Shown in pieces: positions 1,000 to 46,024 of a stretch of 64,000 nt of DNA. How positions within the stretch are numbered: position 1 is the stretch's first letter; each line of letters opens with the position of its first letter. The notes under the pieces are model-generated. The model made no database searches. It was given only the letters and a program-made list of their open reading frames with translations, and was not told where the DNA came from. Made by a program: the position numbers and the translations under genes. The DNA is from a virus (lineage: Duplodnaviria; Heunggongvirae; Uroviricota; Caudoviricetes): positions 17,878 to 81,877 of the IMG/VR virus record IMGVR_UViG_3300028601_000028. One strand, given 5' to 3'.

Positions 1000-1004
1000 A
1001 TTAA

Positions 1005-2438: not shown

Positions 2439-2497
2439 TATAAAAATGATTAATTTTTTAATAGTGTGTAAATATAAATGTATATATAAAAATAATT

Positions 2498-2899: not shown

Positions 2900-3052
2900 A
2901 TTATTAAATTATATTTTTATTATATATTGAATAGTAATAGTTCAGAATATATATTTTAAAATAAATTTAACTATAAATTAAACTTTTTATAGTATTTATA
3001 ATAAAATTATAAAAATATAAAGATAATATCTTAAAAAATTAATAGATTATGC

Positions 3053-4249: not shown

Positions 4250-4270
4250 TAAAATTTTAAAAATTAAAAA

Positions 4271-4984
4271 ATGGGAGCTAATACAAATTTAGAAAAATTA
4301 TTTTTTGCCAAGATCTTAGAAGAACCTAATCAATTTTATAAAGTAGAATCAAAATACTTTGAAAATGAATTGATTAGGTTTGTATATGATGTTATTAGAG
4401 AATATTATATAAATTCAAAAGATAAAATTGTACCTAGTCCAAAACAAGTTTGGTCTATGGTAAGTTTACAAGATGATAAAAAATTAGTTTCAAAAGAAGC
4501 TTTAAAATCATTGTTTACAGAAACAACACAAGATATAACTGATGAATGGTTAGATAGATCATTTAAAGCATGGAAATCATCAAAATATACAAGAGATAAA
4601 ATTTATGAATCCATTGATATTATAAAAAACATGGATGAAGTAAATTATGACAATGTTATGGATATTGTCGGTAGATTAAAAAAGAATTTTAGTGAGATAG
4701 ATATTATATCAAATGATGATGAAGATTTAGGGGGAGATTTTGATGATCCAGAAGAACATAAACAATTGATATCATTAAGAAAAATACCGACAGGATGGTC
4801 AAATTTAGATAAAATATTAGGTGGTGGATGGGATCATGCTACTTTTAACATAATAATGGGAGAAACTAATGTGGGTAAGTGTCTTATTTTCAACACTTTA
4901 ATAAAAATTAAAAACAAAAAAACTAATAAAATCGAAAAAATAAAAATTGGTGATTTTTTTAATATGATAAAAAAATCTTCCTAA
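4271..4984 (+). CDS. replicative DnaB-like helicase (T4 gp41-type), N-terminal fragment ending in a short split-intein N-piece
   Basis: DnaB/gp41 N-domain. Walker A GETNVGK is immediately followed by Cys204 and an intein block-A-like CLIFNTLIKIKNKKTNKIEKIKIGDF, then a stop. The rest of the helicase continues at 6543 in another frame. Confidence 0.8.
   Translation: MGANTNLEKLFFAKILEEPNQFYKVESKYFENELIRFVYDVIREYYINSKDKIVPSPKQVWSMVSLQDDKKLVSKEALKSLFTETTQDITDEWLDRSFKAWKSSKYTRDKIYESIDIIKNMDEVNYDNVMDIVGRLKKNFSEIDIISNDDEDLGGDFDDPEEHKQLISLRKIPTGWSNLDKILGGGWDHATFNIIMGETNVGKCLIFNTLIKIKNKKTNKIEKIKIGDFFNMIKKSS
4880..4984 (+). mobile_element. split intein N-fragment (34 aa, atypically short) inserted in the helicase P-loop
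   Basis: Starts with Cys directly after NVGK, where T4 gp41 has NVGKS. Block A-like sequence, followed by a stop codon. Confidence 0.6.
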
Positions 4985-5019
4985 ATTGGATTCACTTATT
5001 TTTATATATAAAAGTAAAA

Positions 5020-6138
5020 ATGATTATGAAATGTAAAATTTGTAATAATGAATCTAAAGATATTAGAGGATTATCTATTCATTTAGTAAAAAAACACCAT
5101 TTTAATAAAAATGATATTAAAAATTATTATGATAAATATTTAAAAAAAGATAATGAAGGTAAATGTTATTTTTGTGGAAAAAATTCAATTTTTAAAGATT
5201 TATCTAATGGATATCATAATATATGTGATTCTAAAGAATGTTTAGGTAAAACAAGAGCAACAGGTACATATGAATTTTTAATGTATAAATATAATTTATC
5301 AAAAGATGATGCTATAAAAATGATGAATGAAAGAGCATCTGAAAGAGGCAAAAAAATTAAAAAATCATTAAATGAAAAATTTGAAAATAATAAAAATTTT
5401 TTTAAAGAAAGATCACATCAATCAATTAACTACTGGCTGAAAAGAGGATATTCTGAAGATGATGCTAAAATAAAAGTTAAGAAAGTTACTGATATGATAC
5501 ATGAAAAAACATGGAAAAAGAGAAGAGAATATCCAGAATTATATGATGATGTTAGTCCAACACAATTAAAATATTGGTTAAAAAAAGGATATAATGAAGA
5601 AGAAGCAAAAGAAAAAGTAAAAGATAGACAAAGAACTTTTACATTAGAAAAATGTATTAAAAAATATGGTGAAGACGATGGTATAGATATTTGGATAAAA
5701 AGAAATAAAAGATGGTCTAAAAAAATGAAAGATATTTTATTAAAAAATGGAAATTATAAACAAGACTCATCAAATTTAGAAAAAATTTTTATAAATGATA
5801 TTTTAAATGAAACGAATATTAATGAATATAATTGTTATATAAATAAGCAATTTATAATATTTTGTAATAGTGATTTTTATTACACTTATGATTTCAAGTA
5901 TAATAATAAAATAATAGAATTCAATGGTGATTACTGGCATTGTAATCCTATTAAATATGATATGGATTATTTTAATATGAGAAAACAAATGTATGCTAAA
6001 GATATATGGATATATGATAAATTAAAAATTCAAAAAGCTAAAAAAGAAGGATATGATGTATTAGTTATATGGGAAAGTGATTATAAGAAAAATAAAGAAA
6101 AAATTATACAAGAATGTGTAAATTTTTTAAACAAATAA
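5020..6138 (+). CDS. free-standing homing-endonuclease-like protein (Zn-finger N-terminus, Vsr/DUF559-like PD-(D/E)xK C-domain) lying between the two helicase halves
   Basis: CxxC...CxxC motifs at the N-terminus. Repeated YWLKRGYSEDDAK-type helices. C-terminal FDFKYNNKIIEFNGDYWHCNP...GYDVLVIWESDY resembles Vsr (GCFWH...VWE). Paralogous to 8903..9883 and 25733..26791. Confidence 0.7.
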   Translation: MIMKCKICNNESKDIRGLSIHLVKKHHFNKNDIKNYYDKYLKKDNEGKCYFCGKNSIFKDLSNGYHNICDSKECLGKTRATGTYEFLMYKYNLSKDDAIKMMNERASERGKKIKKSLNEKFENNKNFFKERSHQSINYWLKRGYSEDDAKIKVKKVTDMIHEKTWKKRREYPELYDDVSPTQLKYWLKKGYNEEEAKEKVKDRQRTFTLEKCIKKYGEDDGIDIWIKRNKRWSKKMKDILLKNGNYKQDSSNLEKIFINDILNETNINEYNCYINKQFIIFCNSDFYYTYDFKYNNKIIEFNGDYWHCNPIKYDMDYFNMRKQMYAKDIWIYDKLKIQKAKKEGYDVLVIWESDYKKNKEKIIQECVNFLNK

Positions 6139-6176
6139 GAGATAATATTATAAAATATAAAAACAAAATTGTATAA

Positions 6177-6542
6177 ATGATAAGTGACAATACATATAAA
6201 AAATTTATAGAAACATTTGATGTATCAGATTGGCAAATAGAAACCGATACGGGATGGGAAGATATAAAAGAAGTTGGTAAAACAATTGAATATGATGAAT
6301 GGGTAGTAAAAACAGAAGATGGTTTAGAATTAATTTGTGCGGATGAACATATTTTATTTGATAAAAATTATAATGAAATATATGTAAAAAATTTAAAAAT
6401 AGGGGATTATATTTTATCAAAAAATGGTATTTCTAAAATAAAAGAAGTATATAAAACTGATAAAAAGTCAAATATGTATGACTTGTCTTTGTCTGATGAT
6501 TCAAATCGTAGATATTATACAAATGATATTTTATCTCACAAT
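6177..6542 (+). mobile_element. split intein C-fragment (IntC) of the helicase intein
   Basis: Ends ...TNDILSHN with +1 Ser at 6543. Block B and block F/G-like motifs present. Confidence 0.6.
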
Positions 6543-7271
6543 TCAATGTGGTTACAAAATATGGCTGCTAAAATGGCAGATAGTGGATATAATGTTGTTT
6601 ACATAACATTAGAGATGGCAAAATATAAATGTATTAAGCGTTTAGGTGCAATGAGATTAAAAATTGATATTGATGAATATGATACAATAAGTAAAGATAG
6701 TACATTTATTAAAAATAAAATAAACGAATTAAAAACAATGGCATCGTCAAATAAATTATTTGATGGTGGTAAGGTTGGTAAATTATATGTTAAAAAATTT
6801 CCAACTAGTGATTGTACAGTAACAGATTTAGAAAATTATGTTAAAAAATTTCAAGAAACAAAAAATATAAAATTAGATGCAATCGTAGTAGATTACATTA
6901 ATATTATGTCAATTGAGAAAGGTTATAATTTAGACACTATGTTATATCTTAAAGGTAAACATTTAGCAGAAGGATTAAGAAGATTAGCTGATAAGTGTGA
7001 TGTTGCTGTTATTACAGCTACACAAGTTGATAAATCAGTATGGGGAGCAAATGATATTAATTTAGATGATATACCAGAAAGTAAAGCAATAGCAGAAGCA
7101 GCGGATTCTGTTTGGGCAATAATTAGAAACCCTTCTATGAAAAAAGAAAATACATATAGATTAAAAATATTAAAATTAAGAGATGGTGAACATCATGAGG
7201 AACAAGTGAAATTTGATTTTAATACTAAATATTTAACAATGGATAATGATATATTATTTGGATCAAAATAA
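6177..7271 (+). CDS. split-intein C-fragment (122 aa) fused to the C-terminal part of the gp41/DnaB-like helicase
   Basis: Intein block B-like GLELICADEHILF and terminal ILSHN. This is followed by SMWLQNMAAKMADSGYNVVYITLEMAKYKCIKRLGAMRL, which aligns with T4 gp41 S-LGLCSLAADYLQLGHNVLYISMEMAEEVCAKRIDANML, the sequence directly after the Walker A motif. Confidence 0.8.
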   Translation: MISDNTYKKFIETFDVSDWQIETDTGWEDIKEVGKTIEYDEWVVKTEDGLELICADEHILFDKNYNEIYVKNLKIGDYILSKNGISKIKEVYKTDKKSNMYDLSLSDDSNRRYYTNDILSHNSMWLQNMAAKMADSGYNVVYITLEMAKYKCIKRLGAMRLKIDIDEYDTISKDSTFIKNKINELKTMASSNKLFDGGKVGKLYVKKFPTSDCTVTDLENYVKKFQETKNIKLDAIVVDYINIMSIEKGYNLDTMLYLKGKHLAEGLRRLADKCDVAVITATQVDKSVWGANDINLDDIPESKAIAEAADSVWAIIRNPSMKKENTYRLKILKLRDGEHHEEQVKFDFNTKYLTMDNDILFGSK

Positions 7272-7992: not shown

Positions 7993-8847
7993 ATGAATAA
8001 ATACAATAGAAAAGAAGTAGAAAAAAATACATTAGATTATTTTAAAGGTGATTCTTTAGCTACTGAAGTATGGATAAATAAATATGCATTAAAAGATTCA
8101 GATGGAAATATTTATGAATTAACACCAGATGATATGCACAAAAGATTATCTAAAGAACTAAATAGAATTGAAAATAAATATCCTAATCCATTATCAGAAG
8201 ATTTAATTTATAATCTATTAAAAGATTTTAAATATATTATCCCACAAGGAGGTCCGATGTCAGGTATAGGTAATGATTTACAAATTGTTAGTTTATCAAA
8301 TTGTTTTGTGACTGGAAATGAAAGTGATAGTTATGGTGGTATATGCAGAACTGATGAACAACAAGTACAATTAATGAAAAGAAGAGGTGGTGTAGGTCAT
8401 GATTTATCACATATTAGACCAAAAGGATCACCCGTTAAAAACTCTGCACTAACATCAACAGGAGTTGTTCCTTTTATGGAAAGATATTCTAATTCAACAA
8501 GAGAAGTAGCACAAGATGGTCGTAGAGGTGCACTCATGTTAAGTTGTTTTGCACCAGATACATTCGTATTAGTTGATTATGGTTGGGATAAAATTATTAA
8601 TGTTATTAATAAAATAAAAAACGGAGAAAAAATAAAAGCATGGACACATAATGGTTTTAAAAATATAACAGATATTCAGGAATTTATTAATAGAGATGTT
8701 TATGAAATTGAATGTGAAAATGGCAAAAAGATAGTTGTAACACCAGATCACGAATTTCAAGTTAGAAATAAAAATACAAAAAAAGAATATTTAAAAGCTA
8801 TTATTGATGTTGATATAGAAAACGAAGAATTAGTATTCTTTTTTTAA
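7993..8847 (+). CDS. nrdJ: class II (adenosylcobalamin-type) ribonucleotide reductase NrdJ, N-terminal fragment ending in a split-intein N-piece
   Basis: NrdJ-like N-terminus (KYALKDSDGN..E, GGVGHDLSHIRPKGS). The extein stops at GALMLS. Cys185 then begins an intein with block A CFAPDTFVLVDYGW and block B KKIVVTPDHEF, which runs into a stop. Confidence 0.75.
   Translation: MNKYNRKEVEKNTLDYFKGDSLATEVWINKYALKDSDGNIYELTPDDMHKRLSKELNRIENKYPNPLSEDLIYNLLKDFKYIIPQGGPMSGIGNDLQIVSLSNCFVTGNESDSYGGICRTDEQQVQLMKRRGGVGHDLSHIRPKGSPVKNSALTSTGVVPFMERYSNSTREVAQDGRRGALMLSCFAPDTFVLVDYGWDKIINVINKIKNGEKIKAWTHNGFKNITDIQEFINRDVYEIECENGKKIVVTPDHEFQVRNKNTKKEYLKAIIDVDIENEELVFFF
8545..8847 (+). mobile_element. split intein N-fragment (100 aa) in nrdJ
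   Basis: Intein blocks A and B with the T..H motif. Starts with Cys and ends at a stop codon, with no C-terminal splicing motifs in this ORF. Confidence 0.6.
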
Positions 8848-8862
8848 AAAAAACAAATTCGG

Positions 8863-8896
8863 GGTGTTTTATTTTTATATATAACAATAAAACACC
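8863..8896 (+). other. stem-loop (ggtgttttatt / aataaaacacc) between the nrdJ IntN stop and the endonuclease ORF
   Basis: Perfect 11-bp inverted repeat with a 12-nt loop. It is not followed by a T-tract, so it is not a classic terminator. Confidence 0.35.
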
Positions 8897-8902
8897 TTAA
8901 AA

Positions 8903-9883
8903 ATGAAAATAAAATTAAAGAAAATTAAAGAAGACAGAATTAGAATTATCTATAAAATAGATCAATATGATATTAATTTAGATAATAAAATATTTAAAAT
9001 TAATAAAAATACATCTAATTTGAGTGCATATTTAAATAATAAAGGGGATAATTTGATTAATTTTTTAAATAAATCAATTAATAATAAATGTATAAATTGT
9101 TCAAATACAGTAACGAAAAATAGATTTGAAAGAAATAAATTCATTACGTATAAATTTTGTGATAATTGTAATAATATTGAAAATTGGAATAAATATGATA
9201 AAGTAAATTGTATAATATGTAATACTGAACTTTTTAAAAAAGATATGATATTTTCAACATGTGGAAAAGAAGAATGTAAAAATACACATAGAAATAACAT
9301 TAATAAAATAATTAAAAATACACATTGGACTAAAAAAGAAAATGTTAATGAAATTTTAAAAAAAAGAAGTGAAAAAAGATTGTCTAATGATAAAAAATTA
9401 AATAGAAAATACAAAGCATGGAATAAAGGGAAAAAGGGCATATATACAAAAGAAACAATAGAAAAAATAAGAAATTCTACAATTAAACAAATGAAAGAAG
9501 GTAAAATTAAAAAAACTAAAATTGAAATAATATTTGAAAATTTTTTAATTGAAAATGATATAAAATATGTATATTCTTTTATTTATAAAAAAAGACAATT
9601 CGATTTTTATTTAAAAGATTATAATTTAATAATTGAAATAAATGGTGATTATTGGCACGCAAATCCTAAATTTTGGGATATTTATGGTAATGATAATAAT
9701 AAAAAAAAGTTATACGAAACACAAAAAATGAAGATTAAAGATGACATAATTAAAGAGAAAATGATAGAAGATTCTAATTATAAATTTATTAAATTTTGGG
9801 AAGATGATATACATAATAATTTTTCATTAATTATAGAAACTTTAATTAAAAAATTTAATATAAAAATAAAAAATAAAAAATAA
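8903..9883 (+). CDS. free-standing homing-endonuclease-like protein (Zn-finger + Vsr/DUF559-like), between the nrdJ halves
   Basis: Multiple Cx2C Zn-binding motifs. C-terminal QFDFYLKDYNLIIEINGDYWHANPKFWD...KFIKFWEDD motif shared with 5020..6138 and 25733..26791. Its stop is only 3 nt before the IntC start at 9887, in the same frame. Confidence 0.65.
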   Translation: MKIKLKKIKEDRIRIIYKIDQYDINLDNKIFKINKNTSNLSAYLNNKGDNLINFLNKSINNKCINCSNTVTKNRFERNKFITYKFCDNCNNIENWNKYDKVNCIICNTELFKKDMIFSTCGKEECKNTHRNNINKIIKNTHWTKKENVNEILKKRSEKRLSNDKKLNRKYKAWNKGKKGIYTKETIEKIRNSTIKQMKEGKIKKTKIEIIFENFLIENDIKYVYSFIYKKRQFDFYLKDYNLIIEINGDYWHANPKFWDIYGNDNNKKKLYETQKMKIKDDIIKEKMIEDSNYKFIKFWEDDIHNNFSLIIETLIKKFNIKIKNKK

Positions 9884-9886
9884 AAA

Positions 9887-10003
9887 ATGGATAAAACTTA
9901 TAGTAAAATATTTAAAATAACAAAAAAGGGTAAAAGTAATGTTTATGATTTTACTGTTGATGAAACACATAGAATACTCGCTAATAATTTTTATACTTCA
10001 AAT
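9887..10003 (+). mobile_element. split intein C-fragment (39 aa) of the first nrdJ intein
   Basis: Block F/G-like VYDFTVDETHRILANNFYTSN followed by +1 Cys (CHVKHPD...). Confidence 0.55.
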
Positions 10004-13000
10004 TGTCATGTCAAACATCCTGACGCAGAGGATTTTATAGATGCTAAAATGACACAGGGAAAAGTTACTGGTGCTAATGTTTCTGTTAAATTGGATGACG
10101 AATTTATGAAATGTGTTATCGAAGAAAAACCATATATACAAAAATATCCAATCGATTCTGATAATCCAATTTTCACAAAAGAAATAGATGCTAAAAAATT
10201 ATGGAAAAAAATTATTTATAATGCTTGGAAATCTGCTGAACCAGGTTTGCTATTTTGGGATACTGTTATTAAAGAATCAGTACCTGATTGTTATACTGAA
10301 CATGGGTTTAAAACGGTGAGCACTAACCCCTGTGTTGTGGGTGATACTAAAATATCCGTTGCTGATGGAAGAATGGGTGTAACAATTAAAGAATTAGCAG
10401 AAGAATCAAAAGATGTACCTGTTTATTGTTTAGATAATAATGGGGAATTAGCAATTCGTATAATGAGAAATCCACGTATAACAGGTTATAATAAACAAAT
10501 TTATAAAATTACATTAGACAATGGACAATATATTAGGGTTACTGGTAATCATAAATTTAGATTAAAAAACGGAACATATATAGAAGCTAAAGATTTAAAA
10601 AATGGTGATAGTCTTGATGTTTTTTCAAAGGTTATTATAAATAATAATAAAAGAAAAAACAATTACTATACATTAGTAAATAATTCTAATTCATATCTTG
10701 AACATAGAATGGTATCAGAATTTAATAACGGTAGAAAATTAAATGAAAATGAAGTAGTTCATCATATCGATTATAATGGATTAAATAATAATATTAACAA
10801 TTTAAAAATTATGACTATTGATGAACATAATTCATTACATAGAATTGATAAATTAGGTAATAAAAATCCATATCACAGGATGTCAGATGAATGGAAATTT
10901 AATTTTGCATCAAGAAAGGGTGACACAAATAATAAATTTTGTGGTATATATAATGATGAAATTAAAGAACATTTTATAAAACTAACAAAAAAATTAAATA
11001 GAAGAATATCTAAAAAAGATTGGGTTGAATATGCTAAAGAAAACAATTTACCTCAATATTTTTCTTCTTATAGAAGAAATTACGGAGGAGATATTGTATC
11101 ATTAGCTAAATTAGTATCATTAGAATTAAATATAGATAATAATTTTGTTGATGTAGATCCTAGAATTGTAAAAACTTATAAAAAATCTTTATCAGAAGGT
11201 TATAATTCTAAAATAGATAATAATTCAGTAATAGTAGAAAAACAATGTGAACATTGTGGTGAATTATTTTGGGTAGATTATCAAAAAAGAGAAATTAGTT
11301 TTTGTTCACAAAAATGTGCAAATGTTTATATAAATACCGATAAAAATATTAAATTAAAGAGAAAAATATCTATTAATGATACATATAAACAAAAGATGAT
11401 AAACATCAAAAATAAACAAATGGATATTTTCAAAAAATTAGAATTTAATTTAAAAAGGTGTCCTAAATTAAAAGAATGGGAAAAAGAATGTAAATTAAAT
11501 AATATTCCATATAGATTAAAAACTAAATATGGTTATCAAACATTTAGTGATATTAAAAAAGAATCAGAATATTATAACCATAGAGTAATATCTATTGAGT
11601 TAGATGGATTTGAAAATGTATATAATGGAACAGTTGATGATTTTCATAATTTTTTCAGTGGTGAATTTGAAGAAACTACAAAAACAAATAATAAAAAATA
11701 TGTTTATATTAATCAATTAAACTGTGGTGAGATCCCCTTAAATGTAGGTGACTCTTGTAGATTACTGGCATTAAATTTATATTCTTATGTAGAAAACCCA
11801 TTTACAAAAGATGCAAAATTTAACTATGATTTATTTAAAGAACATGTTATTTATGCACAAAGATTTATGGATGATATTGTTGATTTAGAAATAGAAAAAA
11901 TTGATCAAATTTTAAATAAAATTGATAATGATCCAGAGCCAGAACATATTAAAAGAGTTGAAAGAGAATTGTGGAAATTGATTAAAGACAATGCAGTAAA
12001 AGGTAGAAGAACAGGATTAGGAATTACATCAGAAGGTGATATGATTGCAGCGATGGGGTTAATTTATGGCACATCAGAAGCTACTGATTTTGCAGAAAAT
12101 ATACATAAAATATTGGCTACTTATGCTTATAAATCTTCTATAATAATGGCAGAAGAAAGAGGTTCATTTACAGTATTTAATAAGGATAATGAAAAAAATA
12201 ACCCATTTGTAAATAGAGTTCTTAATTCTTTGAAAGAATTTAAAGAAAATGATATTATAGAAAAGTATAATAAAACAGGACGAAGAAATATATCATTACT
12301 TACAATTGCACCAACTGGTTCTGTTAGTATAGTTACACAAACGACATCTGGAATAGAACCAGTATTTTTACCATCTTATACTAGAAGAAGAAAAATAAAC
12401 CCAAATGATAAAAATACTAAAACATCATTTATTGATGAAGTTGGTGATCATTGGGAAGAATATAATGTATTTCATCATAAGTTTAAAACATGGGCTGAAA
12501 TAAATGGTTATGATACATCTAAACTAGAAACAATGAAACAATCCGAACTAGATGATATAATCAAAAAATCCCCATATTTTAAAGCAACATCTAACGATGT
12601 TAATTGGGTAGAAAAGGTTAGAATGCAGGGTAAAATTCAAAAATGGGTAGATCATTCTATATCTGTTACTATTAATTTACCTTCAGATGTTACAGAAGAA
12701 TTAGTATCACAAGTATATCAAACAGGGTGGGAGTCTGGATGTAAAGGAATTACTGTATATAGAGATGGTTCTAGAAGTGGTGTATTGATAACAAAAACAG
12801 ATAATAAGAAAGCAAATATTTTTCAAGAAAATAATGCACCAAAAAGACCAGAATCATTACAGTGTGATGTTTATAGATTCCAAAATAAGGGAGATAAATG
12901 GATTGGGTTTATGGGATTATTAGATAATAAACCATATGAGATATTTACAGGTCTGCAAGAAAGTGTAAATATACCTAATAATATAACAAAAGGTGAGATT

Positions 13001-13381
13001 AAAAAAGTTAAATCAGCTGAATCTGATGGACATTCTAGATATGATTTTATTTATATAGATAAAGATGGATATAAACAAGAATTTAGAGGGTTATCTAGGG
13101 CATTTAATAGAGAATTTTGGAATACAGGTAGATTGATTTCCGCAGTTCTAAGACATGGTATGCCGTTACCAAATGTTTTACAAATAATGGATAAATTAAT
13201 ATTTGATAGTGATGATGTTATAACATCATGGAAACAAGGTATTAAAAGAATTATAAAAAAATATATAAAAGAAGGAACATTAGTAAAAGGACAAACATGT
13301 GATGTATGTGGTTCATCTAATATAGTTTTTAAAGAAGGTTGCATGACTTGTATGGATTGTGGTACATCTAAATGTGAATAG
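9887..13381 (+). CDS. nrdJ: NrdJ C-terminal portion: split-intein C-fragment (39 aa) + RNR extein, itself interrupted by a second, contiguous HNH-containing intein
   Basis: Starts with an IntC ending VYDFTVDETHRILANNFYTSN|C. The extein then runs to STNP. A Cys-initiated intein follows (aa 149-612) with an HNH motif. The extein resumes with CGEIPL, the class II RNR active-site motif TNPCGEIxL. The C-terminal zinc ribbon CDVCGSS..CMTCMDCG is typical of NrdJ. Confidence 0.8.
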   Translation: MDKTYSKIFKITKKGKSNVYDFTVDETHRILANNFYTSNCHVKHPDAEDFIDAKMTQGKVTGANVSVKLDDEFMKCVIEEKPYIQKYPIDSDNPIFTKEIDAKKLWKKIIYNAWKSAEPGLLFWDTVIKESVPDCYTEHGFKTVSTNPCVVGDTKISVADGRMGVTIKELAEESKDVPVYCLDNNGELAIRIMRNPRITGYNKQIYKITLDNGQYIRVTGNHKFRLKNGTYIEAKDLKNGDSLDVFSKVIINNNKRKNNYYTLVNNSNSYLEHRMVSEFNNGRKLNENEVVHHIDYNGLNNNINNLKIMTIDEHNSLHRIDKLGNKNPYHRMSDEWKFNFASRKGDTNNKFCGIYNDEIKEHFIKLTKKLNRRISKKDWVEYAKENNLPQYFSSYRRNYGGDIVSLAKLVSLELNIDNNFVDVDPRIVKTYKKSLSEGYNSKIDNNSVIVEKQCEHCGELFWVDYQKREISFCSQKCANVYINTDKNIKLKRKISINDTYKQKMINIKNKQMDIFKKLEFNLKRCPKLKEWEKECKLNNIPYRLKTKYGYQTFSDIKKESEYYNHRVISIELDGFENVYNGTVDDFHNFFSGEFEETTKTNNKKYVYINQLNCGEIPLNVGDSCRLLALNLYSYVENPFTKDAKFNYDLFKEHVIYAQRFMDDIVDLEIEKIDQILNKIDNDPEPEHIKRVERELWKLIKDNAVKGRRTGLGITSEGDMIAAMGLIYGTSEATDFAENIHKILATYAYKSSIIMAEERGSFTVFNKDNEKNNPFVNRVLNSLKEFKENDIIEKYNKTGRRNISLLTIAPTGSVSIVTQTTSGIEPVFLPSYTRRRKINPNDKNTKTSFIDEVGDHWEEYNVFHHKFKTWAEINGYDTSKLETMKQSELDDIIKKSPYFKATSNDVNWVEKVRMQGKIQKWVDHSISVTINLPSDVTEELVSQVYQTGWESGCKGITVYRDGSRSGVLITKTDNKKANIFQENNAPKRPESLQCDVYRFQNKGDKWIGFMGLLDNKPYEIFTGLQESVNIPNNITKGEIKKVKSAESDGHSRYDFIYIDKDGYKQEFRGLSRAFNREFWNTGRLISAVLRHGMPLPNVLQIMDKLIFDSDDVITSWKQGIKRIIKKYIKEGTLVKGQTCDVCGSSNIVFKEGCMTCMDCGTSKCE
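10331..11722 (+). mobile_element. contiguous intein (464 aa) with HNH homing-endonuclease domain inserted between TNP and CGEIPL of NrdJ
   Basis: Begins CVVGDTKISVADG (block A) directly after STNP. Internal HNH motif VVHHIDYNGLNNNINNLKIMTIDEHNSLH. Ends ...YINQLN, followed by extein CGEIPLNVGDSC. Confidence 0.7.
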
Positions 13382-15200: not shown

Positions 15201-15392
15201 ATGATTAAAAAATTTAGCCAAATGAATGAATCAATTAGTATGAATTATACTAATACATTAATATCATTTTCAGGTGATGATTGGGTAGGTATTTATAAAG
15301 ATGGTATTCTTTATCAACAAGGACATAGTATATATTGGAAAAATTTACTAAAAGATCTAATTAATGATAAAGTTGATTTATATTCGTCTTGA
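15201..15392 (+). CDS. small hypothetical protein (63 aa)
   Basis: Short ORF. A hairpin lies immediately downstream. Confidence 0.25.
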   Translation: MIKKFSQMNESISMNYTNTLISFSGDDWVGIYKDGILYQQGHSIYWKNLLKDLINDKVDLYSS

Positions 15393-15399
15393 AAGAAAA

Positions 15400-15422
15400 C
15401 CAATAAATCTTTAGTTTATTGG
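15400..15422 (+). other. perfect 8-bp stem-loop ccaataaa-tctttag-tttattgg upstream of tnpB; possible terminator or IS200/605 left-end-like hairpin
   Basis: Inverted repeat read directly from the sequence. No T-tract follows. Confidence 0.3.
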
Positions 15423-15572
15423 ATGAATTTCAATTAAATTTTTTAAAATATTTTTAAACTATAAATAACTATAAATCAATATTTTAACCATTTAATTTTT
15501 AAAAATGGAAAAAATGATATTTTTCATTTAATATATAATTATACAGATAAATCAAAAAAAGGTTGTATAAAA

Positions 15573-18024: not shown

Positions 18025-18142
18025 AATTGTTAAAATTCTTTTTTATTATATATAAAAAAATAAAAATCATTTTTATTAAAAATAATAAAATACATATTTT
18101 TTATTTAATATATATATTAAAATATACAATTAATATATTTCT

Positions 18143-20082: not shown

Positions 20083-20157
20083 AAATATTTATTTTTATTT
20101 TATATATAAAATTAAGAATATTAAATTTTAATATATAGATAAAAATATGTGAATTAG

Positions 20158-23722: not shown

Positions 23723-24037
23723 TTATTTTTTAATATTATTTTCATTTAAATAGATATTAATAGTTTCATACTTTTTACAATTATTTATAAAATTTACTTC
23801 ATCATAAATGTCTAATTTAAACCATTCTCCATTAACTTTTTTATGTCTATAAATATTATGTAATGTTTTTTCTATTATTTTACTATAATCTGATTGATAT
23901 TCATCAACTATAATAATTTTATTAGGACAACCTGTTTGTAAATTTTTTAATCTTGAATTTACTGTACTTTTTGTATATCCTATTTTATATATTGGAGAAT
24001 TATCATCAATCATTTTTAATAAGTATACTTTTGGCAT
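23723..24037 (-). CDS. small GIY-YIG-like (T5orf172/MUG113-type) domain protein
   Basis: VYLLKMIDDNSPIYKIGYTKSTVNSRLKNLQTGCP...EKTLHNIYRHKKVNGEWFKL matches the T5orf172 pattern (YiY...g.iKIG.T.....Rl..l......E..lH..f...r..gEWF). Confidence 0.5.
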   Translation of the reverse strand: MPKVYLLKMIDDNSPIYKIGYTKSTVNSRLKNLQTGCPNKIIIVDEYQSDYSKIIEKTLHNIYRHKKVNGEWFKLDIYDEVNFINNCKKYETINIYLNENNIKK

Positions 24038-24410: not shown

Positions 24411-24713
24411 TTAAAGTTTATTTTCATTTAAAAAATTATTTAGTATTTCTTCTGTATTTGGTATGCTATTATGTATAAAATAGATTAATTCGTTTATTTT
24501 ATCATAGTCATAAATATTATCAATGTTTAATTTTATTAATAATTTGTCTTCTGGTACTATTCTAATATTTCCATTTCTATCATACCAATATCCTATTTCA
24601 TATATATCTTCACCTGCAATCATATTTAATAATAACGCTACACCATTATCTATTTTACCAATATAATCAATTATACTTATGGATATTGGTAAATCTTTAA
24701 TAATATCATTCAT
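24411..24713 (-). CDS. hypothetical protein (100 aa)
   Basis: ORF. Confidence 0.35.
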   Translation of the reverse strand: MNDIIKDLPISISIIDYIGKIDNGVALLLNMIAGEDIYEIGYWYDRNGNIRIVPEDKLLIKLNIDNIYDYDKINELIYFIHNSIPNTEEILNNFLNENKL

Positions 24714-24764
24714 ATAAATAGAAACATTTTATTTTTATATATAATAGAAAATAATATTTGTTTT

Positions 24765-25136
24765 ATGCCAAACGCGGATATTAAAGATTTTAATATTAGA
24801 TATAAAGGACATCCAAAATTTAAAGATTTAAAATTAATAGAGGATAGAACATTAGAAGTAATAATACAGAAATTAGAAATGATGCTTTTTACAAATAAAG
24901 GCGAAGTTCTAAATGATTATAATTTTGGTGCCAATTTAGAGTATTATTTATGGTCAACTAAAGTACCTGTAAATAGAATAAAAGATGAAATACAAGAACA
25001 AATAAATCAATATATACCAGAATTAAATAATTATGAATATACAATTGATACAAAATTATATAATGGTACAAAAAGAGATATTTTATTTATAAATATAAAT
25101 ATAAAAGATATTGAAGTTACATTTCTCTTAAAATAA
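24765..25136 (+). CDS. gp25/GPW-like baseplate wedge protein
   Basis: LEVIIQKLEMMLFTNKGEVLNDYNFGANLEYYLW...IKDEIQEQINQYIPEL follows the T4 gp25 pattern LRSIKNSLLGIITTRKGSRPFDPEFGCDLSDQLFE...VERNIESAVRNYEPRI. Confidence 0.5.
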   Translation: MPNADIKDFNIRYKGHPKFKDLKLIEDRTLEVIIQKLEMMLFTNKGEVLNDYNFGANLEYYLWSTKVPVNRIKDEIQEQINQYIPELNNYEYTIDTKLYNGTKRDILFININIKDIEVTFLLK

Positions 25137-25145
25137 AAATGTATT

Positions 25146-25670
25146 ATGAAATTAAATAAAAATGAGTTAGATGAAAAGTATATTAATATATTAACAACCA
25201 ATAGAGTTAATGATATTATAGAAAAACAAAATTTAAATTTAAAATTAACCAAAGATGAACATATATGGTTTGATAGGCAATTTGGTGTTCGTAGAGCAAA
25301 TCTAAAATTTGCACATACAAAAAAAGAATTAGAGGAATATACCAAATGTAAGATGGATATTCATTATTTTGCTGATAATTATTGTCAAATAAAAAGAGAA
25401 GATGGTACAATAGGACCAATGAAATTAAGAGATTACCAAAAAGATATTTTAGATTTATATGCAAATAACAGGTACTCAATATTAATGGCTAGCCGGCAAA
25501 TGGGAAAATGCAACTCTTTGATTTCTAAAGTGTTAGTAAAAGATAATAATGGAAAAGAGTTTAATATAACAATCGGTGAATTATATTATACTTATATTCA
25601 ACAAGAAAGAAAATTAACACTAATAGAAATATTAAAATTATTTTTATATAAAATATTGTCATTTTTATAA
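25146..25670 (+). CDS. terL: large terminase subunit (T4 gp17-type), N-terminal fragment ending in a split-intein N-piece
   Basis: Walker A SRQMGK (T4: SRQLGKT). The threonine position is taken by Cys122, which starts the intein block A CNSLISKVLVKDNNGKEFNITIGEL. A stop follows after 53 aa. Confidence 0.8.
   Translation: MKLNKNELDEKYINILTTNRVNDIIEKQNLNLKLTKDEHIWFDRQFGVRRANLKFAHTKKELEEYTKCKMDIHYFADNYCQIKREDGTIGPMKLRDYQKDILDLYANNRYSILMASRQMGKCNSLISKVLVKDNNGKEFNITIGELYYTYIQQERKLTLIEILKLFLYKILSFL
25509..25670 (+). mobile_element. split intein N-fragment (53 aa) in terL Walker A
   Basis: Cys-initiated block A. No block B within this piece; block B is in the downstream ORF. Confidence 0.6.
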
Positions 25671-25732
25671 ATTACTTTACCAAATTATCTTTTAGCCATA
25701 AAATTTTTATATATAAAAGAAAAAATAAAAAT

Positions 25733-26791
25733 ATGAAAATTAAAATATTAAGTAAATTAAAAGAAAAAAATATTGTTATTAAAGAAAATATAATAATTAA
25801 TGATAATGATGAATCTGTTACATCTAGAATTGATGGAACTCAAAGAAAAAGGATATATGGTAAATATTTAAAAAGTATTGGTTTAACAAGCGAAGAATAT
25901 AAAATATTATTTCCTGATGCACCATTGATGGCAAAATCTGATTATAAAAATACTACTAAAAATTCAGGTCAACATATGAAACAAGAAAAATATAAACGAC
26001 TTTTTTCAGAAAAAATTAAAGGATGTAAAAATCCAAATCATAAATCAAAAACTACAGAAAAAGAAAGAAAAGAACGAAGTCCTTTTAGTAAAGATTTTTA
26101 TAAAAATAAATATAAAAATATAACAGATAAAGATATTGATTATATTAGAAAAAATTTTATAAAAGACTTTATTAAAGATAGAGTCACAACAACTCAAATC
26201 GAATATTATTTAAATAAAGGTTATGATGAAAAAACATCAAAAAAAATGTTGTCTGAAAGACAAAAAACATTTAGTTTAGATTTATGTATTAAAAAATATG
26301 GCAACGATAAAGGAAAAGAAATTTGGAATAATAGGCAAATAAAATGGCAAAAATCGTTATTACAAAATGGTAATTTAAAATGTGGATATTCCAAAATATC
26401 ACAAAAATTATTTTATGATATTTTAAATAAATATAATATTAATGATAAATCTTATATTTATTTTGCTACAAAAAATCAAGAATATTATTTATCTGGTGGA
26501 AAAGAATTATTTTATCAATATGATTTTGTTGATTTAAAAAATAAAAAGATAATAGAATATAATGGAGATCAATATCACGCTAATCCAAAAATATATGAAT
26601 CAAATGATAATCCACACCCGTTTAGAAAAAACATAACAGCTCAAGAAATTTGGGATAAAGATAATAATAAAATACAATTAGCTCACGATAATGGATTTGA
26701 AGTATTAATAGTATGGGATTCAGAATATAAAGAAAATAAAGAAATAATATTAAAAAAATGTTTAAATTTTTTAAATATTAATAAAAAATAA
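25733..26791 (+). CDS. free-standing homing-endonuclease-like protein (same family as 5020..6138), between the terL halves
   Basis: YYLNKGYDEKTSKKM / RQKTFSLDLCIKKYGNDKGKEIW repeats, then QYDFVDLKNKKIIEYNGDQYHANPKIYE...GFEVLIVWDSEYKENKEIILKKCLNFL. Closely parallels 5020..6138. Confidence 0.7.
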   Translation: MKIKILSKLKEKNIVIKENIIINDNDESVTSRIDGTQRKRIYGKYLKSIGLTSEEYKILFPDAPLMAKSDYKNTTKNSGQHMKQEKYKRLFSEKIKGCKNPNHKSKTTEKERKERSPFSKDFYKNKYKNITDKDIDYIRKNFIKDFIKDRVTTTQIEYYLNKGYDEKTSKKMLSERQKTFSLDLCIKKYGNDKGKEIWNNRQIKWQKSLLQNGNLKCGYSKISQKLFYDILNKYNINDKSYIYFATKNQEYYLSGGKELFYQYDFVDLKNKKIIEYNGDQYHANPKIYESNDNPHPFRKNITAQEIWDKDNNKIQLAHDNGFEVLIVWDSEYKENKEIILKKCLNFLNINKK

Positions 26792-26798
26792 ATGGTTT

Positions 26799-27248
26799 AT
26801 GTTTAAACTTATATTAAGATTTATTATTTATAAAATAATAGAATTTATTGAAAAAATAGAATACCGAAACTATAAATTTGATAATGATAATCCATTTAAT
26901 AAAATAATCAATATTATAAATAATAATGATTTATTAATTAAAACTGATTATGGATTTGTACCATTTAGTGAAATAAATTTAACATCGCCTTTGCCACTTT
27001 ATAGATTAGAATTAGAAAACGGTGATTGGTTAGAATGTGCTGATTATCATATAGTTTTTATAAAAGGACATCATCAAAAATTCGTTAAAGATTTAACTAT
27101 TGATGATTATGTTTTATGTAAAGGTGATTATATAAATGGTGTGAAGGTAAAACGAATAACAAATTTAAAATCTAAAGTTAGTATGGTTGATATTACTGTG
27201 GATACCAATGAACGAAGTTATTATTCCAATAATATATTGTCACACAAC
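26799..27248 (+). mobile_element. split intein C-fragment (IntC) of the terL intein
   Basis: Ends SYYSNNILSHN with +1 Thr at 27249, which is the Thr of the GKT P-loop. Confidence 0.6.
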
Positions 27249-29048
27249 ACGATAAGTGCTGCCATTTTAATTCTCCATTTTTGTCTATTTAATAAAGATA
27301 AAGGGGTTATGATTGTTGCTAATAAAGGAGCAACAGTTGTTGAAATCATAGAAAAAATCAAGAGTATATACAAATTATTACCTTTCTTTTTAAAGGTTGG
27401 AATTGTTAACTGGAACCAATCTAGTATAACATTTGATAATGGGTGTAGAATAAAAACAGATAAAAGAACAAAAGAACCAGCAATCGGTTTTACGATTGAT
27501 CTACTTTATTTAGATGAATTTGCACATATACCTAATAATATTGTAGAACCATATTATACATCAGTTGTTCCAGTAGTATCATCTGTAAATAATTCAAAAA
27601 TAATAATAACATCAACCCCAAAAGGTTTAAACTTGTTTCATAAATTATTAACAGAATCAGAATTACCAGAAGATGATCCAAACTGGAATGGATATAGATC
27701 ATTAAGAATATATTGGTGGCAAATGAAATCTAGAAGAAATACAAAAATATTTTTTAATGATAAAAAATTAAGAAAATTTAAAATTAGAAAAGATGATATT
27801 AAAAAATTTTTAATAAATAAAGGTTATGATATATATTCAGAAAAAGAAAATGGTATGGATGGGATATTTATTGAACATGATAAAAAGAATGAAGAAACAA
27901 ATATAGAATTTATAAGAATGTTGAGAATGAATGATTTACCATTAGCTGAATTAGGAATCATTACCAACTGGCAAGAACAACAAACAAAATTAATTGGTGG
28001 TGAAGATGCATTTAAACAAGAATTTGATCTACACTTTATTACAGGTAATAAGATGTTATTTGATAATATTACAATTGAAAAAATAATAGAAGATAGATTA
28101 AAATTTGAATATGTTGATATAGATAAGTTTAACAAAAGATTAAAAATACCATATAATGGATTACAATTTGTAAAGGATAAAAATTTATTTAATTTAGATG
28201 AATGTAAAAATTATCATATTGGTATATCCATAGATTTAGGAGAAGGCTTAGGAAATGATTATAGTATAATAAATATATTTAGATTATTGCCAAAAACTAA
28301 AGAAGAAATAGATATACATAAGAAAAAATTTACAGATAAATATGACTATTTTAAATTAGAACAAATTGGAATATTTAAATCTAATATTTATTCAGTAAAA
28401 GAAATATCTGATATCTTATATATGATAGTATTTGAATTATTTGATGAAAACAAAGTTAAAATTGCATTAGAAAGAAATACATATGGTGATGAACTTTTAG
28501 CACACATACCACACGTGTTTAATGATAATAATAATTATTCAAATCATGTTTTCTTAAGATATAAACATAGAATTGAAGATAAAAATACTAAATTAGGTAT
28601 CAAAATAACACAAAATAAAAAAATATTAATAAAAGATTATCAGATAAATACCAAAAAAGGAAATATTATCATACATGATCAATATACAATAAATGAAATA
28701 AGTACATTTACTAGACATGATTTAGCATCAGGTGATATAACATTCAGAAGTGAATCTGGTCATGATGATGCTATTATGTCAACAATAGTTATGTCAACAA
28801 TATTTTCAATGATTAGTTATAGGGATATGATAGATGAGTATATGGAAAATAATTCATTGAATATTACAGAAGATATAAACACATTTATAGACGAATATGC
28901 AGACGATTCTCCTGATCTCATAACAATAGTAGGTGGGTATAAAAAAGTCTATAATAACCCACATAAAACACCAAATAATGGAAATTTTAATAAAAGATTC
29001 ACTCCGGTTAATCCATTATCTAAATTTCCTAGTAAAAATAGATTTTAA
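26799..29048 (+). CDS. terL: split-intein C-fragment (150 aa) fused to the remainder of the large terminase (ATPase core + nuclease domain)
   Basis: Intein block B WLECADYHIVF and terminal ILSHN. This is followed by TISAAILILHFCLFNKDKGVMIVANKGATVVEIIEKIKSIYKLLPFF, which aligns with T4 gp17 [48 protein letters not shown]. Downstream LYLDEFAHIP corresponds to gp17 IYIEDCAFIP, and IIITSTPKG to IIITTTPNG. Confidence 0.85.
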   Translation: MFKLILRFIIYKIIEFIEKIEYRNYKFDNDNPFNKIINIINNNDLLIKTDYGFVPFSEINLTSPLPLYRLELENGDWLECADYHIVFIKGHHQKFVKDLTIDDYVLCKGDYINGVKVKRITNLKSKVSMVDITVDTNERSYYSNNILSHNTISAAILILHFCLFNKDKGVMIVANKGATVVEIIEKIKSIYKLLPFFLKVGIVNWNQSSITFDNGCRIKTDKRTKEPAIGFTIDLLYLDEFAHIPNNIVEPYYTSVVPVVSSVNNSKIIITSTPKGLNLFHKLLTESELPEDDPNWNGYRSLRIYWWQMKSRRNTKIFFNDKKLRKFKIRKDDIKKFLINKGYDIYSEKENGMDGIFIEHDKKNEETNIEFIRMLRMNDLPLAELGIITNWQEQQTKLIGGEDAFKQEFDLHFITGNKMLFDNITIEKIIEDRLKFEYVDIDKFNKRLKIPYNGLQFVKDKNLFNLDECKNYHIGISIDLGEGLGNDYSIINIFRLLPKTKEEIDIHKKKFTDKYDYFKLEQIGIFKSNIYSVKEISDILYMIVFELFDENKVKIALERNTYGDELLAHIPHVFNDNNNYSNHVFLRYKHRIEDKNTKLGIKITQNKKILIKDYQINTKKGNIIIHDQYTINEISTFTRHDLASGDITFRSESGHDDAIMSTIVMSTIFSMISYRDMIDEYMENNSLNITEDINTFIDEYADDSPDLITIVGGYKKVYNNPHKTPNNGNFNKRFTPVNPLSKFPSKNRF

Positions 29049-29049
29049 T

Positions 29050-29766
29050 ATGAAATATAGTAATAAAAAATCAAATACATTAGAATTTATAAAGAGGTCT
29101 AATAATGTACATAATGATAAATATGATTATTCAATTGTGGATTATAAAAACAATTCAACTAAAGTTAAAATTATATGCAAACAACATGGTGTTTTTGAAC
29201 AATTACCTGTTGCACATATTAATTTTAAACAAGGATGTCCTAAATGTAAAGGTGGTGTATCTATAACAAAAGAAGATTTTATTAAAAATTCAACAAAAAT
29301 ACATTATGACAATTATGATTATACTCTAGTAGAATATAAAAATATGAAAACTAAGGTTAAAATTATATGTAAAAAACATGGTGTTTTCGAACAGATACCA
29401 GATAATCATATTCGTAAAAAATATGGTTGTCCAAAATGTAAAAAATCTAAAAATGAAATATTAATCGAAAAAATATTTATTGATAATAATATTAAATTTG
29501 AAACACAAAAAACATTTGATGGGTGTAAATATAAACAAAAACTAAAATTTGATTTTTATTTAACAGATTTTAATACTTGTATTGAGTATGATGGGGAACA
29601 ACATTTTAAAAAATATAGATTCGAAAAGGATGATAGTAATTTAAATATTAGAAAATTAAGAGATCAAATAAAAACAGATTATTGTAAAAATAATAATATT
29701 CAGTTAATTAGAATAAAATACAATGAAAATATTGAAAAAAAATTAAACTTTTTAATTAATATATAA
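29050..29766 (+). CDS. homing-endonuclease-like protein with duplicated Zn-finger module and DUF559/Vsr-like C-domain
   Basis: Two copies of YDYSIVDYKNNSTKVKIICKQHGVFEQLPVAHI..GCPKCK. C-terminal FDFYLTDFNTCIEYDGEQHF...NNIQLIRIKY (restriction-endonuclease-like D..EvDG..H). The six-frame ORF starts at 28933 inside terL; the ATG at 29050, just after the terL stop, is the likely start. Confidence 0.6.
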   Translation: MKYSNKKSNTLEFIKRSNNVHNDKYDYSIVDYKNNSTKVKIICKQHGVFEQLPVAHINFKQGCPKCKGGVSITKEDFIKNSTKIHYDNYDYTLVEYKNMKTKVKIICKKHGVFEQIPDNHIRKKYGCPKCKKSKNEILIEKIFIDNNIKFETQKTFDGCKYKQKLKFDFYLTDFNTCIEYDGEQHFKKYRFEKDDSNLNIRKLRDQIKTDYCKNNNIQLIRIKYNENIEKKLNFLINI

Positions 29767-29783
29767 TAAATATTTGTACAAAT

Positions 29784-29855
29784 GCAAGAATAGTGTAGTG
29801 GTAGCATGATTTACTTCCAGTAAATAGGGTTCGGTTCGATTCCGGTGTCTTTGCT
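29784..29855 (+). tRNA. tRNA, probably tRNA-Gly (anticodon UCC)
   Basis: Cloverleaf read by hand: acceptor GCAAGAA/TCTTTGC (one mismatch, one G-U), D-arm GTGT-AGTGGTA-GCAT, anticodon stem ATTTA/TAAAT with loop CTTCCAG (U33, anticodon TCC, A37), and T-arm with GGTTCGATTCC. No encoded CCA. Followed by a terminator. Confidence 0.6.
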
Positions 29856-29860
29856 CAAAA

Positions 29861-29891
29861 AGGAATAAATTATTTAATTTATTCCTTTTTA
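29861..29891 (+). terminator. rho-independent terminator after the tRNA
   Basis: aggaataaatta-ttt-aatttattcct perfect hairpin followed by ttttat. Confidence 0.65.
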
Positions 29892-29944
29892 TATTTAAAA
29901 CAAAAATATTTTTTTAATATAAAATATAAAAACATAAAAATAAT

Positions 29945-45983: not shown

Positions 45984-46024
45984 ATTGTTGTTATTAATTT
46001 TTATTATATATAAATATAATATGG

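Follow-up and report, generated by a model that had tools for sequence, protein, structure and literature searches.

A fractured gp17-type terminase gene with an atypical split intein at its Walker A motif and a free-standing Vsr-like endonuclease gene in a tailed virus

The terminase locus and its exteins

We analyzed a 64-kb stretch of DNA of the IMG/VR virus record IMGVR_UViG_3300028601_000028 (Caudoviricetes; the whole stretch is hereafter called the window), in which the large subunit of terminase (TerL) is encoded in two separate parts. The G+C content of the window is about 21% throughout, and the window spans part of a genome of possibly several hundred kb. Three open reading frames (ORFs) of 174, 352, and 749 amino acids lie there on the same strand, and their positions are given in Table 1. 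The first carries the N-terminal part of TerL (N-extein) and the N-terminal half of an intein (IntN); that is, it runs through ...LMASRQMGK, continues with CNSLISKVLVKDNNGKEFNITIGELYYTYIQQERKLTLIEILKLFLYKILSFL, and ends at TAA. The second is the gene of a predicted endonuclease. The third carries the C-terminal half of the intein (IntC) and the remaining part of TerL (C-extein), within which the Walker B motif LLYLDE and the C-terminal nuclease region are found.

At the upstream junction the DNA reads ATG GGA AAA/TGC at 25500-25511 (here and below a slash marks the splice junction), with the codon of Cys1 at 25509-25511, and IntN is closed by TAA at 25668-25670. The downstream TerL ORF has its own ATG at 26799, and CAC AAC/ACG at 27243-27251 encodes His-Asn/Thr+1. 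The two TerL ORFs share frame 0 (25146 and 26799 are divisible by 3), unlike the endonuclease ORF, which is read in a different frame.

The initial annotation had described a gp17-type TerL broken between the Lys and the Thr of Walker A, and the ORFs, the DNA, and the extein alignments agree on this. It had also described an IntN with block A only, an IntC that has block B and ends in ILSHN, and a free-standing endonuclease gene between the TerL halves; the first two are seen directly in the translations, in which IntN is without block B and IntC holds blocks B, F, and G, and the third has its own frame. Its statement that the intein removes the Thr of GKT has to be corrected, since this Thr is kept as the +1 nucleophile and the first residue of the C-extein.

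We then joined the two exteins and compared the product of 720 amino acids with known terminases. It matched the Pfam profile Terminase_6N from profile position 1 with 69.4 bits (cutoff 22), compared to 49.9 bits from profile position 11 for the TerL C fragment alone. Against the structures of T4 gp17 (3EZK, 3CPE, 2O0H) the E-value was 1.3e-55, and the alignment was ungapped through lmaSRQMGKTisaaililhfclFNKDKgv of the joined exteins, in which SRQMGKT faces SRQLGKT of T4. In this comparison the N-extein aligned to gp17 residues 92 onward, the Walker B motif aligned to MIYIDE of T4, and a second aligned stretch covered residues 424-564 of the gp17 nuclease domain (E 0.0015). The N-extein also matched the PHROG family of the terminase large subunit (E 6e-21).

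An allele free of the intein was found on another IMG/VR contig (L003). Its uninterrupted TerL is exactly 720 amino acids long and has the predicted junction SRQMGK-TISAAIL, and the DNA of the empty site reads ...ATGGCATCAAGACAAATGGGTAAA/ACGATAAGTGCT.... The coding sequence of this allele and the spliced coding sequence of the window are of equal length (2163 nt) with 89.5% nucleotide identity, and the C-extein of the window is 92% identical to that of the allele. Four further relatives (L009-L012) are also free of the intein. Terminase_6N, T4 gp17, and the intact allele all agree on the colinearity of the two fragments with TerL, and because the joined exteins align ungapped to T4 gp17 and to the intact allele, non-colinearity is refuted. 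The P-loop SRQMGKT is restored by joining the exteins.

The intein halves, their hairpin, and the recurrence of the break

We aligned eight inteins with IntN and IntC fused (28-68% identity), namely those of the window TerL, of the relatives L004, L005, L006, L008, and LR756501, the contiguous intein of the Vibrio phage VAP7, and the helicase intein of the window. Cys1, Gly23, C-A-D-x-H of block B, M-x-D of block F, and I-L-x-x-N of block G were invariant in all eight, and the +1 residue was Thr or Ser in all of them. The class-1 nucleophiles of the window intein are Cys1, Asn150 of IntC, and Thr+1. Within the TxxH motif of block B the His is invariant (CADYH), and the position of Thr is occupied by Ala throughout the family.

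The AlphaFold2 (AF2) model of the fused intein had a predicted local distance difference test score (pLDDT) of 87.7 and a predicted template modelling score (pTM) of 0.84. When this model was compared with the PDB by Foldseek, 53 matches were obtained at E<=1e-3; all were HINT-domain structures, nearly all of them inteins and a few bacterial intein-like or hedgehog proteins. The matches included the TFIIB mini-intein, VidaL 6VGV (TM 0.84, root-mean-square deviation 2.4), gp41-1, NrdJ-1, and Cat 6DSL, and Cat showed the highest identity among them (25%). The model supports the prediction that the fused intein adopts the HINT fold. By sequence, the best phmmer match of IntC in the PDB was CatC 6DSL_B (E 0.0034), which is weak but runs end to end (IntC residues 25-149), and IntN alone gave no match there.

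In the AF2 model, IntN has strands at residues 7-11 and 17-21 and helices at 22-33 and 38-52. That is, the first two strands and helix alpha1 are in IntN, like in the 25-residue IntN of the characterised intein AceL-TerL. The predicted helices 38-52 and 57-74 flank the fusion point, and they correspond to two conserved stretches, the IntN tail RKLTxxExxKxxLYKxL and the IntC head (F/K)KxxLRxIIYxLIExIEKxEYRN, the latter standing before the remaining HINT strands. When 1.84 billion representatives were searched exhaustively with phmmer, 524 relatives were obtained (E<=1e-3), among them several contiguous TerL inteins with the same insertion site, in which both helices are joined by a short turn. 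The metagenomic proteins P0249, P0251, P0254, and P0286 share the insertion point and carry the hairpin unbroken (RKLTLTEKVK...turn...FIEKIEYRH); in P0251 the uninterrupted hairpin reads ...ERKLTLTEKVKRQIYRYYHRYKKYYLLKVIQFIEKIEYRH.... Since the contiguous relatives show both helices joined, the tail and the head are two arms of one hairpin, and because they carry it uninterrupted, we think that the hairpin is ancestral to the split and that the break lies in its loop. A target-site duplication, as a reading of the likeness of the IntN tail to the IntC head, was also considered and rejected (46% identity over 13 residues with E 2.6-9.8, not significant).

The contiguous intein of VAP7 (Ackermannviridae, MK795384) lies at the same site between Lys and Thr (SRQxGK/C...ILSHN/T) and is 36% identical to the IntC part of the window (E 5e-16), but it has an unrelated linker of ~50 residues where the window intein family has the hairpin. 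Both this intein and the metagenomic contiguous inteins are single polypeptides with no endonuclease gene inside.

The break was found to recur in many relatives. We compared the N fragment with its best 120 homologous clusters, clustered at 90% identity, and 118 of them were proteins of 166-183 amino acids which end with SRQxGK/C and an IntN of 52-59 residues (mode 54) having the same tail. Thus, the split form is dominant among the close N-fragment relatives retrieved. The identical 174-amino-acid ORF is present on four contigs from several repositories. The three-ORF layout and the break are kept in L005 and L008, of which the extein identity is ~50%. In L004 (67% identity) the break point is kept, and a 535-amino-acid endonuclease of another family lies at 3281-4888 on the opposite strand. 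In L006 and L007, two tandem endonuclease genes lie between the TerL halves (2862-4993).

Among the phage records of GenBank, the nearest TerLs belong to the 634-735-kb uncultured phages LR756501-4 and LR745206. In LR756501, a 735-kb phage, the N half (181 amino acids) and the C half (755 amino acids) are 12.4 kb apart, and fourteen ORFs of at least 100 amino acids lie between them on both strands; in this phage, too, the tail and head helices are conserved. That is, LR756501 has a fully dispersed split terminase gene. The varying cargo of L004 and of L006 and L007 points to repeated, independent endonuclease turnover at one loop. A sequencing error cannot explain the break, because the endonuclease gene of L004 is inverted and the halves of LR756501 are 12.4 kb apart, and the 118 clusters speak for the same conclusion.

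The endonuclease gene, its mobility, and the sister loci

Database searches with the 352-amino-acid endonuclease gave 845 relatives (E<=1e-3), and the sources of several of them use the label 'very-short-patch-repair endonuclease'. In 19 aligned endonucleases, E275, N277, G278, D279, H282, N284, P285, D310, K313, and W328 were invariant, and the E..D..H..D pattern among these residues (E275, D279, H282, D310), located in the C-terminal catalytic domain, is that of the Vsr-like (EDxHD) homing endonucleases. The AF2 model had a pLDDT of 81.6, and its endonuclease matches of the highest probability by Foldseek, at E-values which are not significant, were E. coli Vsr 1VSR (probability 0.97, E 0.045) and the catalytic domain of I-Bth0305I 3R3P (probability 0.98, TMt 0.62, E 0.11); Vsr 1CW0 was likewise among the matches. 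The sequence search of the PDB gave nothing meaningful with either the single sequence or a profile, the latter reaching 3HRL at E 0.1. A comparable enzyme is I-Bth0305I (PMC3239194), which has an EDxHD catalytic domain and is encoded inside an intervening sequence of a phage gene, like the endonuclease of the window. The gene of I-Bth0305I is in a group I intron of recA, whereas that of the window is free-standing between intein halves.

The element shows presence/absence polymorphism among alleles that are ~90% identical in nucleotides. When the contig L002 was compared with the window, the last 102 nt of IntC were 100% identical and the identity was ~88% from the splice junction exactly. 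Both L001 and L002 start inside IntC, which would fit the behaviour of an assembler if one intein sequence is common to diverged strains. Furthermore, window positions 25482-25508 and L003 positions 2274-2297 (GCTAGCCGG and GCATCAAGA, respectively) differ by seven substitutions, all synonymous and all within the 21 nt directly 5' of the insertion point, and on its 3' side the first 24 nt show no difference. For example, the window has AGC CGG and L003 has TCA AGA, and CGG is unusual at 21% G+C. This cluster of silent sites could be a mark of endonuclease-site immunity or the edge of a co-conversion tract. As a signature of immunity it was rejected, the codon choice being inconsistent across the other alleles with and without the intein.

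The motif ATTTTTATATATAA has 15 matches with at most one mismatch in the window, compared to 5.6 expected, and none of 100 shuffles reached 15. The copies lie ~10-30 nt 5' of start codons, including those of all three endonuclease genes located between intein halves. We regard the motif as a candidate phage promoter, of which each endonuclease gene would have its own copy. A general scan of 24700-29900 gave 64 promoter-like sites, where 57.6 would be expected, and the three ORFs were not separated by any terminator; in DNA with a G+C content of 21% such a scan is uninformative. Stable RNA hairpins overlap the motif and the 5' leader of the endonuclease genes at the helicase locus (4970-5040, z -2.25) and at the ribonucleotide reductase (RNR) locus (8835-8920, z -3.41), and no such hairpin was found upstream of the endonuclease gene of the TerL locus (z +0.42). 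Dassa et al. 2009 (NAR 37:2560, PMC2677866) described hairpins of this sort ahead of endonuclease ORFs.

Two other genes of the window are broken in a similar manner. One encodes a DnaB/gp41-like helicase, of which the Walker A motif is broken at the same place (GETNVGK/C...ILSHN/S). Its joined exteins matched DnaB_C over positions 2-251 with 92.5 bits, versus 68 bits for the C fragment alone. The helicase intein is also an atypical split intein, with an IntN of 34 residues without block B and an IntC of 122 residues, and it is without the hairpin. The other gene encodes RNR, and its intein is broken at the canonical position; that is, block B (TPDHEF) is in IntN, and IntC has ~39 residues. 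In both the helicase and the RNR, the two halves are in different frames.

The pairwise comparison of these elements gave the following results. The TerL and helicase inteins are 37% identical over 125 residues (E 3e-22), and the TerL endonuclease is 42.6% identical over 204 residues to the endonuclease of the helicase locus (E 6e-43). Thus, the relationship of the two inteins and the paralogy of the two endonucleases, both suggested in the initial annotation, were borne out. The RNR-locus endonuclease is weakly related to that of TerL (E 4e-4), and between the RNR and TerL inteins there is only a remote similarity. The same annotation had called the TerL locus the third instance of one architecture, which is correct for the gene layout of all three loci; at the level of the intein only two share it, the break in RNR being canonical.

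In addition, the RNR C fragment (9887-13381) contains a second, contiguous intein at about residues 156-591 (Intein_splicing, E 6.5e-16), which holds a nested HNH endonuclease (HNH_3, residues 272-315). Because of this second intein in the RNR C fragment, the window has four inteins.

Table 1. Positions of the terminase locus, the copies of the promoter-like motif, the sister loci, and the dispersed terminase halves of LR756501
Feature	Position	Strand	Basis
TerL N-fragment ORF, 174 aa	25146..25670	+	
TerL N-extein, 121 aa, last residues SRQMGK (first six of Walker A)	25146..25508	+	ORF, DNA
IntN, 53 aa, CNSLISKVLV...YKILSFL and TAA stop; block A, helix alpha1, tail helix	25509..25670	+	ORF, DNA
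Promoter-like motif ATTTTTATATATAA, 17 nt 5' of endonuclease start codon	25703..25716	+	motif statistics
Predicted Vsr-like (EDxHD-type) homing endonuclease gene, free-standing, 352 aa	25733..26791	+	ORF, homologs, motif, structural matches
TerL C-fragment ORF, 749 aa	26799..29048	+	
IntC, 150 aa: head helix MFKLILRFIIYKIIEFIEKIEYRN, block B ECADYH, block F MVDITVD, block G ILSHN	26799..27248	+	
TerL C-extein, 599 aa and stop, opening with Thr+1 of Walker A (TISAAILILHFCLFNKDKGV)	27249..29048	+	
Copies of ATTTTTATATATAA	4998-5011, 8871-8884, 24731-24744, 25703-25716	+	
Copies of ATTTTTATATATAA	2480-2493, 18046-18059, 20100-20113, 46004-46017	-	
DnaB/gp41-like helicase, split gene	4271..7271 (4271..4984 and 6177..7271)	+	
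Endonuclease of the helicase locus	5020..6138		
RNR, split gene	7993..8847 and 9887..13381		
Endonuclease of the RNR locus	8903..9883		
LR756501 terminase halves, in L015 (LR756501.1 608500-625500)	N 15366-15911, C 727-2994	-	

The neighbourhood of terL is dense in mobile nuclease genes. Only 2 nt after the TerL stop lies a free-standing nuclease gene (29050-29766), which matches DUF723 and zinc-ribbon domains and the PHROG families of homing and HNH endonucleases. This region is 100% identical among the window, L003, and L002, compared to ~88-90% in the body of TerL, and the step in identity marks a recombination mosaic that is bounded by the nuclease gene. A tRNA gene (29784-29855; Rfam RF00005, 36.8 bits) lies just downstream of it. 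Two genes upstream of terL, at 23723-24037 on the minus strand, there is a small GIY-YIG-like T5orf172/MUG113 ORF. RecA/UvsX-like and UvsW-like proteins are also encoded in the window.

Proposed mechanism, rival explanations, and relation to known split inteins

Taken comprehensively, we think it highly probable that the two halves of TerL are translated separately, that atypical class-1 trans-splicing restores SRQMGKT, and that the Vsr-like homing endonuclease spreads the element. Here the splicing activity, the activity and target of the endonuclease, and the function of the promoter are predicted from the sequence. As to the origin of this fractured gene of a T4-like huge phage, for which we rely on the comparative series, an ancestral contiguous mini-intein was probably located between the Lys and the Thr of the TerL Walker A motif, and it would have had the two-helix hairpin next to its first helix, on the C-terminal side. 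The Vsr-like endonuclease gene, free-standing and with its promoter-like motif, would then have landed in the DNA of the hairpin loop, by which the intein would have become atypically split into an IntN of 53 and an IntC of 150 residues.

As to splicing, for which we rely on what is known of the family, the short IntN would dock into the nearly complete IntC, and the tail and head helices would form the hairpin again. The N-S shift at Cys1, the attack by Thr+1, and the cyclisation of Asn would then follow as class-1 trans-splicing and yield a TerL of 720 amino acids with the SRQMGKT P-loop restored. Because neither fragment has a complete P-loop, the packaging ATPase should require this splicing. 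That packaging is gated by trans-splicing is thus a reasonable inference, which does not in itself speak for regulation. The endonuclease presumably cuts terL alleles without the intein in co-infection and thereby drives the copying of the whole element.

The ratios of nonsynonymous to synonymous substitution rates (dN/dS; Nei-Gojobori, five pairs) were 0.13-0.39 in IntC and 0.05-0.33 in the exteins, although these estimates are rough because dS (0.5-1.5) is near saturation. The exteins and IntC are under purifying selection, and the dN/dS of IntC resembles that of the exteins.

Besides this saturation, several other observations weigh against the proposed mechanism. The dN/dS of IntN is higher (0.22-0.62). 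The replacement of the block B Thr by Ala throughout the family is non-canonical, and so is the Leu at the position of the penultimate His in L005, L006, L008, and LR756501 (ILSLN, ILNLN). The Pfam profile Intein_splicing matches the fused intein below threshold (E 0.0083). The pairing of the hairpin comes from an in-silico fusion and a shallow alignment of 10 rows, most of them without IntN. Lastly, the structural matches of the endonuclease are not significant (E 0.045-0.11, none at E<=1e-3). As for the block B Thr and the penultimate His, both deviations are tolerated in known inteins, and the His of block B is more critical than the Thr.

A further possibility is that the element has been domesticated. 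That is, the split hairpin would serve as a handle for heterodimerisation which is efficient even when the halves are 12 kb apart, and trans-splicing would be a checkpoint for the timing of the packaging ATPase, with the P-loop of the helicase controlled in parallel; TerL-C would be expressed separately, downstream of the promoter-like motif of the endonuclease gene. We consider this unlikely. If it were true, it would be a case of natural regulated protein splicing that controls phage DNA packaging and a source of a hairpin-assisted split-intein tool.

It is less probable still that the inteins are splicing-dead relics and that the TerL fragments assemble non-covalently through the HINT halves and the hairpin helices. 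The NrdA of Aeromonas phage Aeh1, which is split by a mobile endonuclease gene, has been reported to assemble from its fragments without splicing (PMC3045599), and the Ala in block B, the Leu in place of the penultimate His in some relatives, and the hairpin helices, which are better conserved than much of IntN, would all suit such an assembly. In contrast, the class-1 residues (Cys1, His of block B, Asp of block F, the terminal Asn, and Thr or Ser at +1) are invariant, the characterised relatives AceL-, GOS-, and Cat-TerL do splice, and a P-loop with ~200 HINT residues between its Lys and Thr is unlikely to bind ATP.

We see very little probability that the fractured terL is a decaying pseudogene and that an intact terminase is encoded elsewhere in the genome, outside the window. 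The window does cover only 64 kb of a genome of possibly several hundred kb. On the other hand, the purifying selection on the exteins and IntC is similar to that on intact relatives, the 720 extein codons contain no frameshift or internal stop, the split form dominates among the close relatives of the N fragment retrieved, and there is no second TerL-like sequence within the window. Moreover, in the complete LR756501 the C-fragment query matched two places, of which the top one was the C half, and the N-fragment query likewise matched two places with the N half at the top.

Removal at the RNA level (by a group I or II intron with an endonuclease ORF) or a contiguous intein with a nested endonuclease that only seems broken through an error of assembly or sequencing is hardly credible and is already largely refuted: although terL of other huge phages is often split by group I introns with stand-alone endonucleases (PMC12880540) and both TerL ORFs happen to share a frame, no intron family was found by Rfam in 25300-27400 at gathering thresholds or at E<=10, the flanks encode complementary HINT halves with catalytic residues, IntN ends at a TAA stop, the endonuclease ORF is in another frame, the halves at the other two loci differ in frame, and an artefact does not agree with the 174-amino-acid ORF on 4 contigs, the 118 clusters with the same end, the inversion in L004, and the 12.4-kb gap in LR756501. 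The Rfam search at gathering thresholds over the whole window found one tRNA only, and that at E<=10 in 25300-27400 found only four chance-level matches to small RNA, small nucleolar RNA, and microRNA families. To our knowledge, TAA is not reassigned by the known phage recodings, which concern TAG and TGA.

The arrangement itself is the published 'fractured gene', a term which Dassa et al. defined on ocean metagenomes (PMC2677866) for genes in which the halves of a split intein are separated by a free-standing endonuclease gene of the GIY-YIG or Vsr-like type. The host genes in that study were those of the gp41 helicase, NrdJ, NrdA, IMPDH, DnaE, ligase, and a gp17-like terminase. The terminase intein, from Lake Gatun, was described as 'fractured at an unusual point', after motif N1, with a C part of 122 residues; this C part holds every N-terminal motif except N1. 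The locus of the window shows each feature of a fractured gene, that is, colinear halves, a stop and an ATG of their own with intein parts, and a Vsr-like gene between. Compared by description with the terminase of Dassa et al., the window has an IntC of 150 residues with an extra head helix, and there are three fractured genes in 64 kb with both halves, together with intein-free alleles.

The characterised atypical split class-1 inteins AceL-TerL (25/104 residues), GOS-TerL (37/115 residues), and Cat-TerL, for which trans-splicing has been demonstrated (PMC11766414), resemble the window intein: all of them lie in TerL and are split by nature, and in each a short IntN that lacks block B is paired with a long IntC. 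They use Cys+1 (and Ser1 in GOS-TerL; PMC11766414), whereas the window intein has Cys1 and Thr+1. We therefore think that the window intein is related to them but belongs to another allele or site. Furthermore, the window family has ~25 extra residues in IntN and ~40 extra residues in IntC, which form the predicted helical hairpin. Three metagenomic proteins (P0006, P0007, and P0008) are middle pieces of TerL, which have an IntC of the P-loop intein at their start and, directly behind Walker B, a second short IntN at their end (LLY/CLDGDSTV..., LLVDE/CVSGNTLV...). It appears that two atypical split inteins divide these terminase genes into three parts, and judging from the ends with the second IntN, the insertion site of AceL-, GOS-, and Cat-TerL may be the one after Walker B.

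Cyanobacterial DnaE is an essential enzyme made by trans-splicing from two halves whose genes, dnaE-n and dnaE-c, lie at distant loci, and the terminase of LR756501 approaches such a state. The DnaE split intein has the canonical break, with a long IntN and an IntC of ~36 residues; it also differs in that there is no endonuclease gene and the genome is cellular. Terminases and the P-loops of ATPases are recognised hot spots of inteins (PMC4760082), and for huge phages it is commonly reported that mobile elements fragment terL (PMC12880540).

The window locus leaves the current understanding of inteins unchanged. What is modestly new is the insertion site between Lys and Thr of Walker A with Thr+1, the conserved two-helix hairpin with the break in its loop, and the paralogous intein and endonuclease in the P-loop of the helicase. 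The locus is a complete example of a fractured gene, with both halves, the endonuclease, and intein-free as well as contiguous alleles. The series in huge phages leads from a contiguous mini-intein with the hairpin, through one endonuclease gene in the loop and then two or an inverted one, to halves 12.4 kb apart, and it fits the model in which genes can become permanently split when endonuclease genes invade their inteins. The family of at least 118 clusters offers atypical split inteins with Cys1, Thr+1, and a helix-helix handle as candidates for tools. Recognition of this pattern would also rescue terL calls in huge-phage genomes, where TerL fragments are now labelled 'hypothetical protein' or 'Hint domain-containing protein, partial' in bacterial bins of metagenome-assembled genomes; the exact proteins of the window are deposited in this way under a Saccharofermentanales bacterium and Trichloromonas sp., presumably from mis-binned phage contigs.

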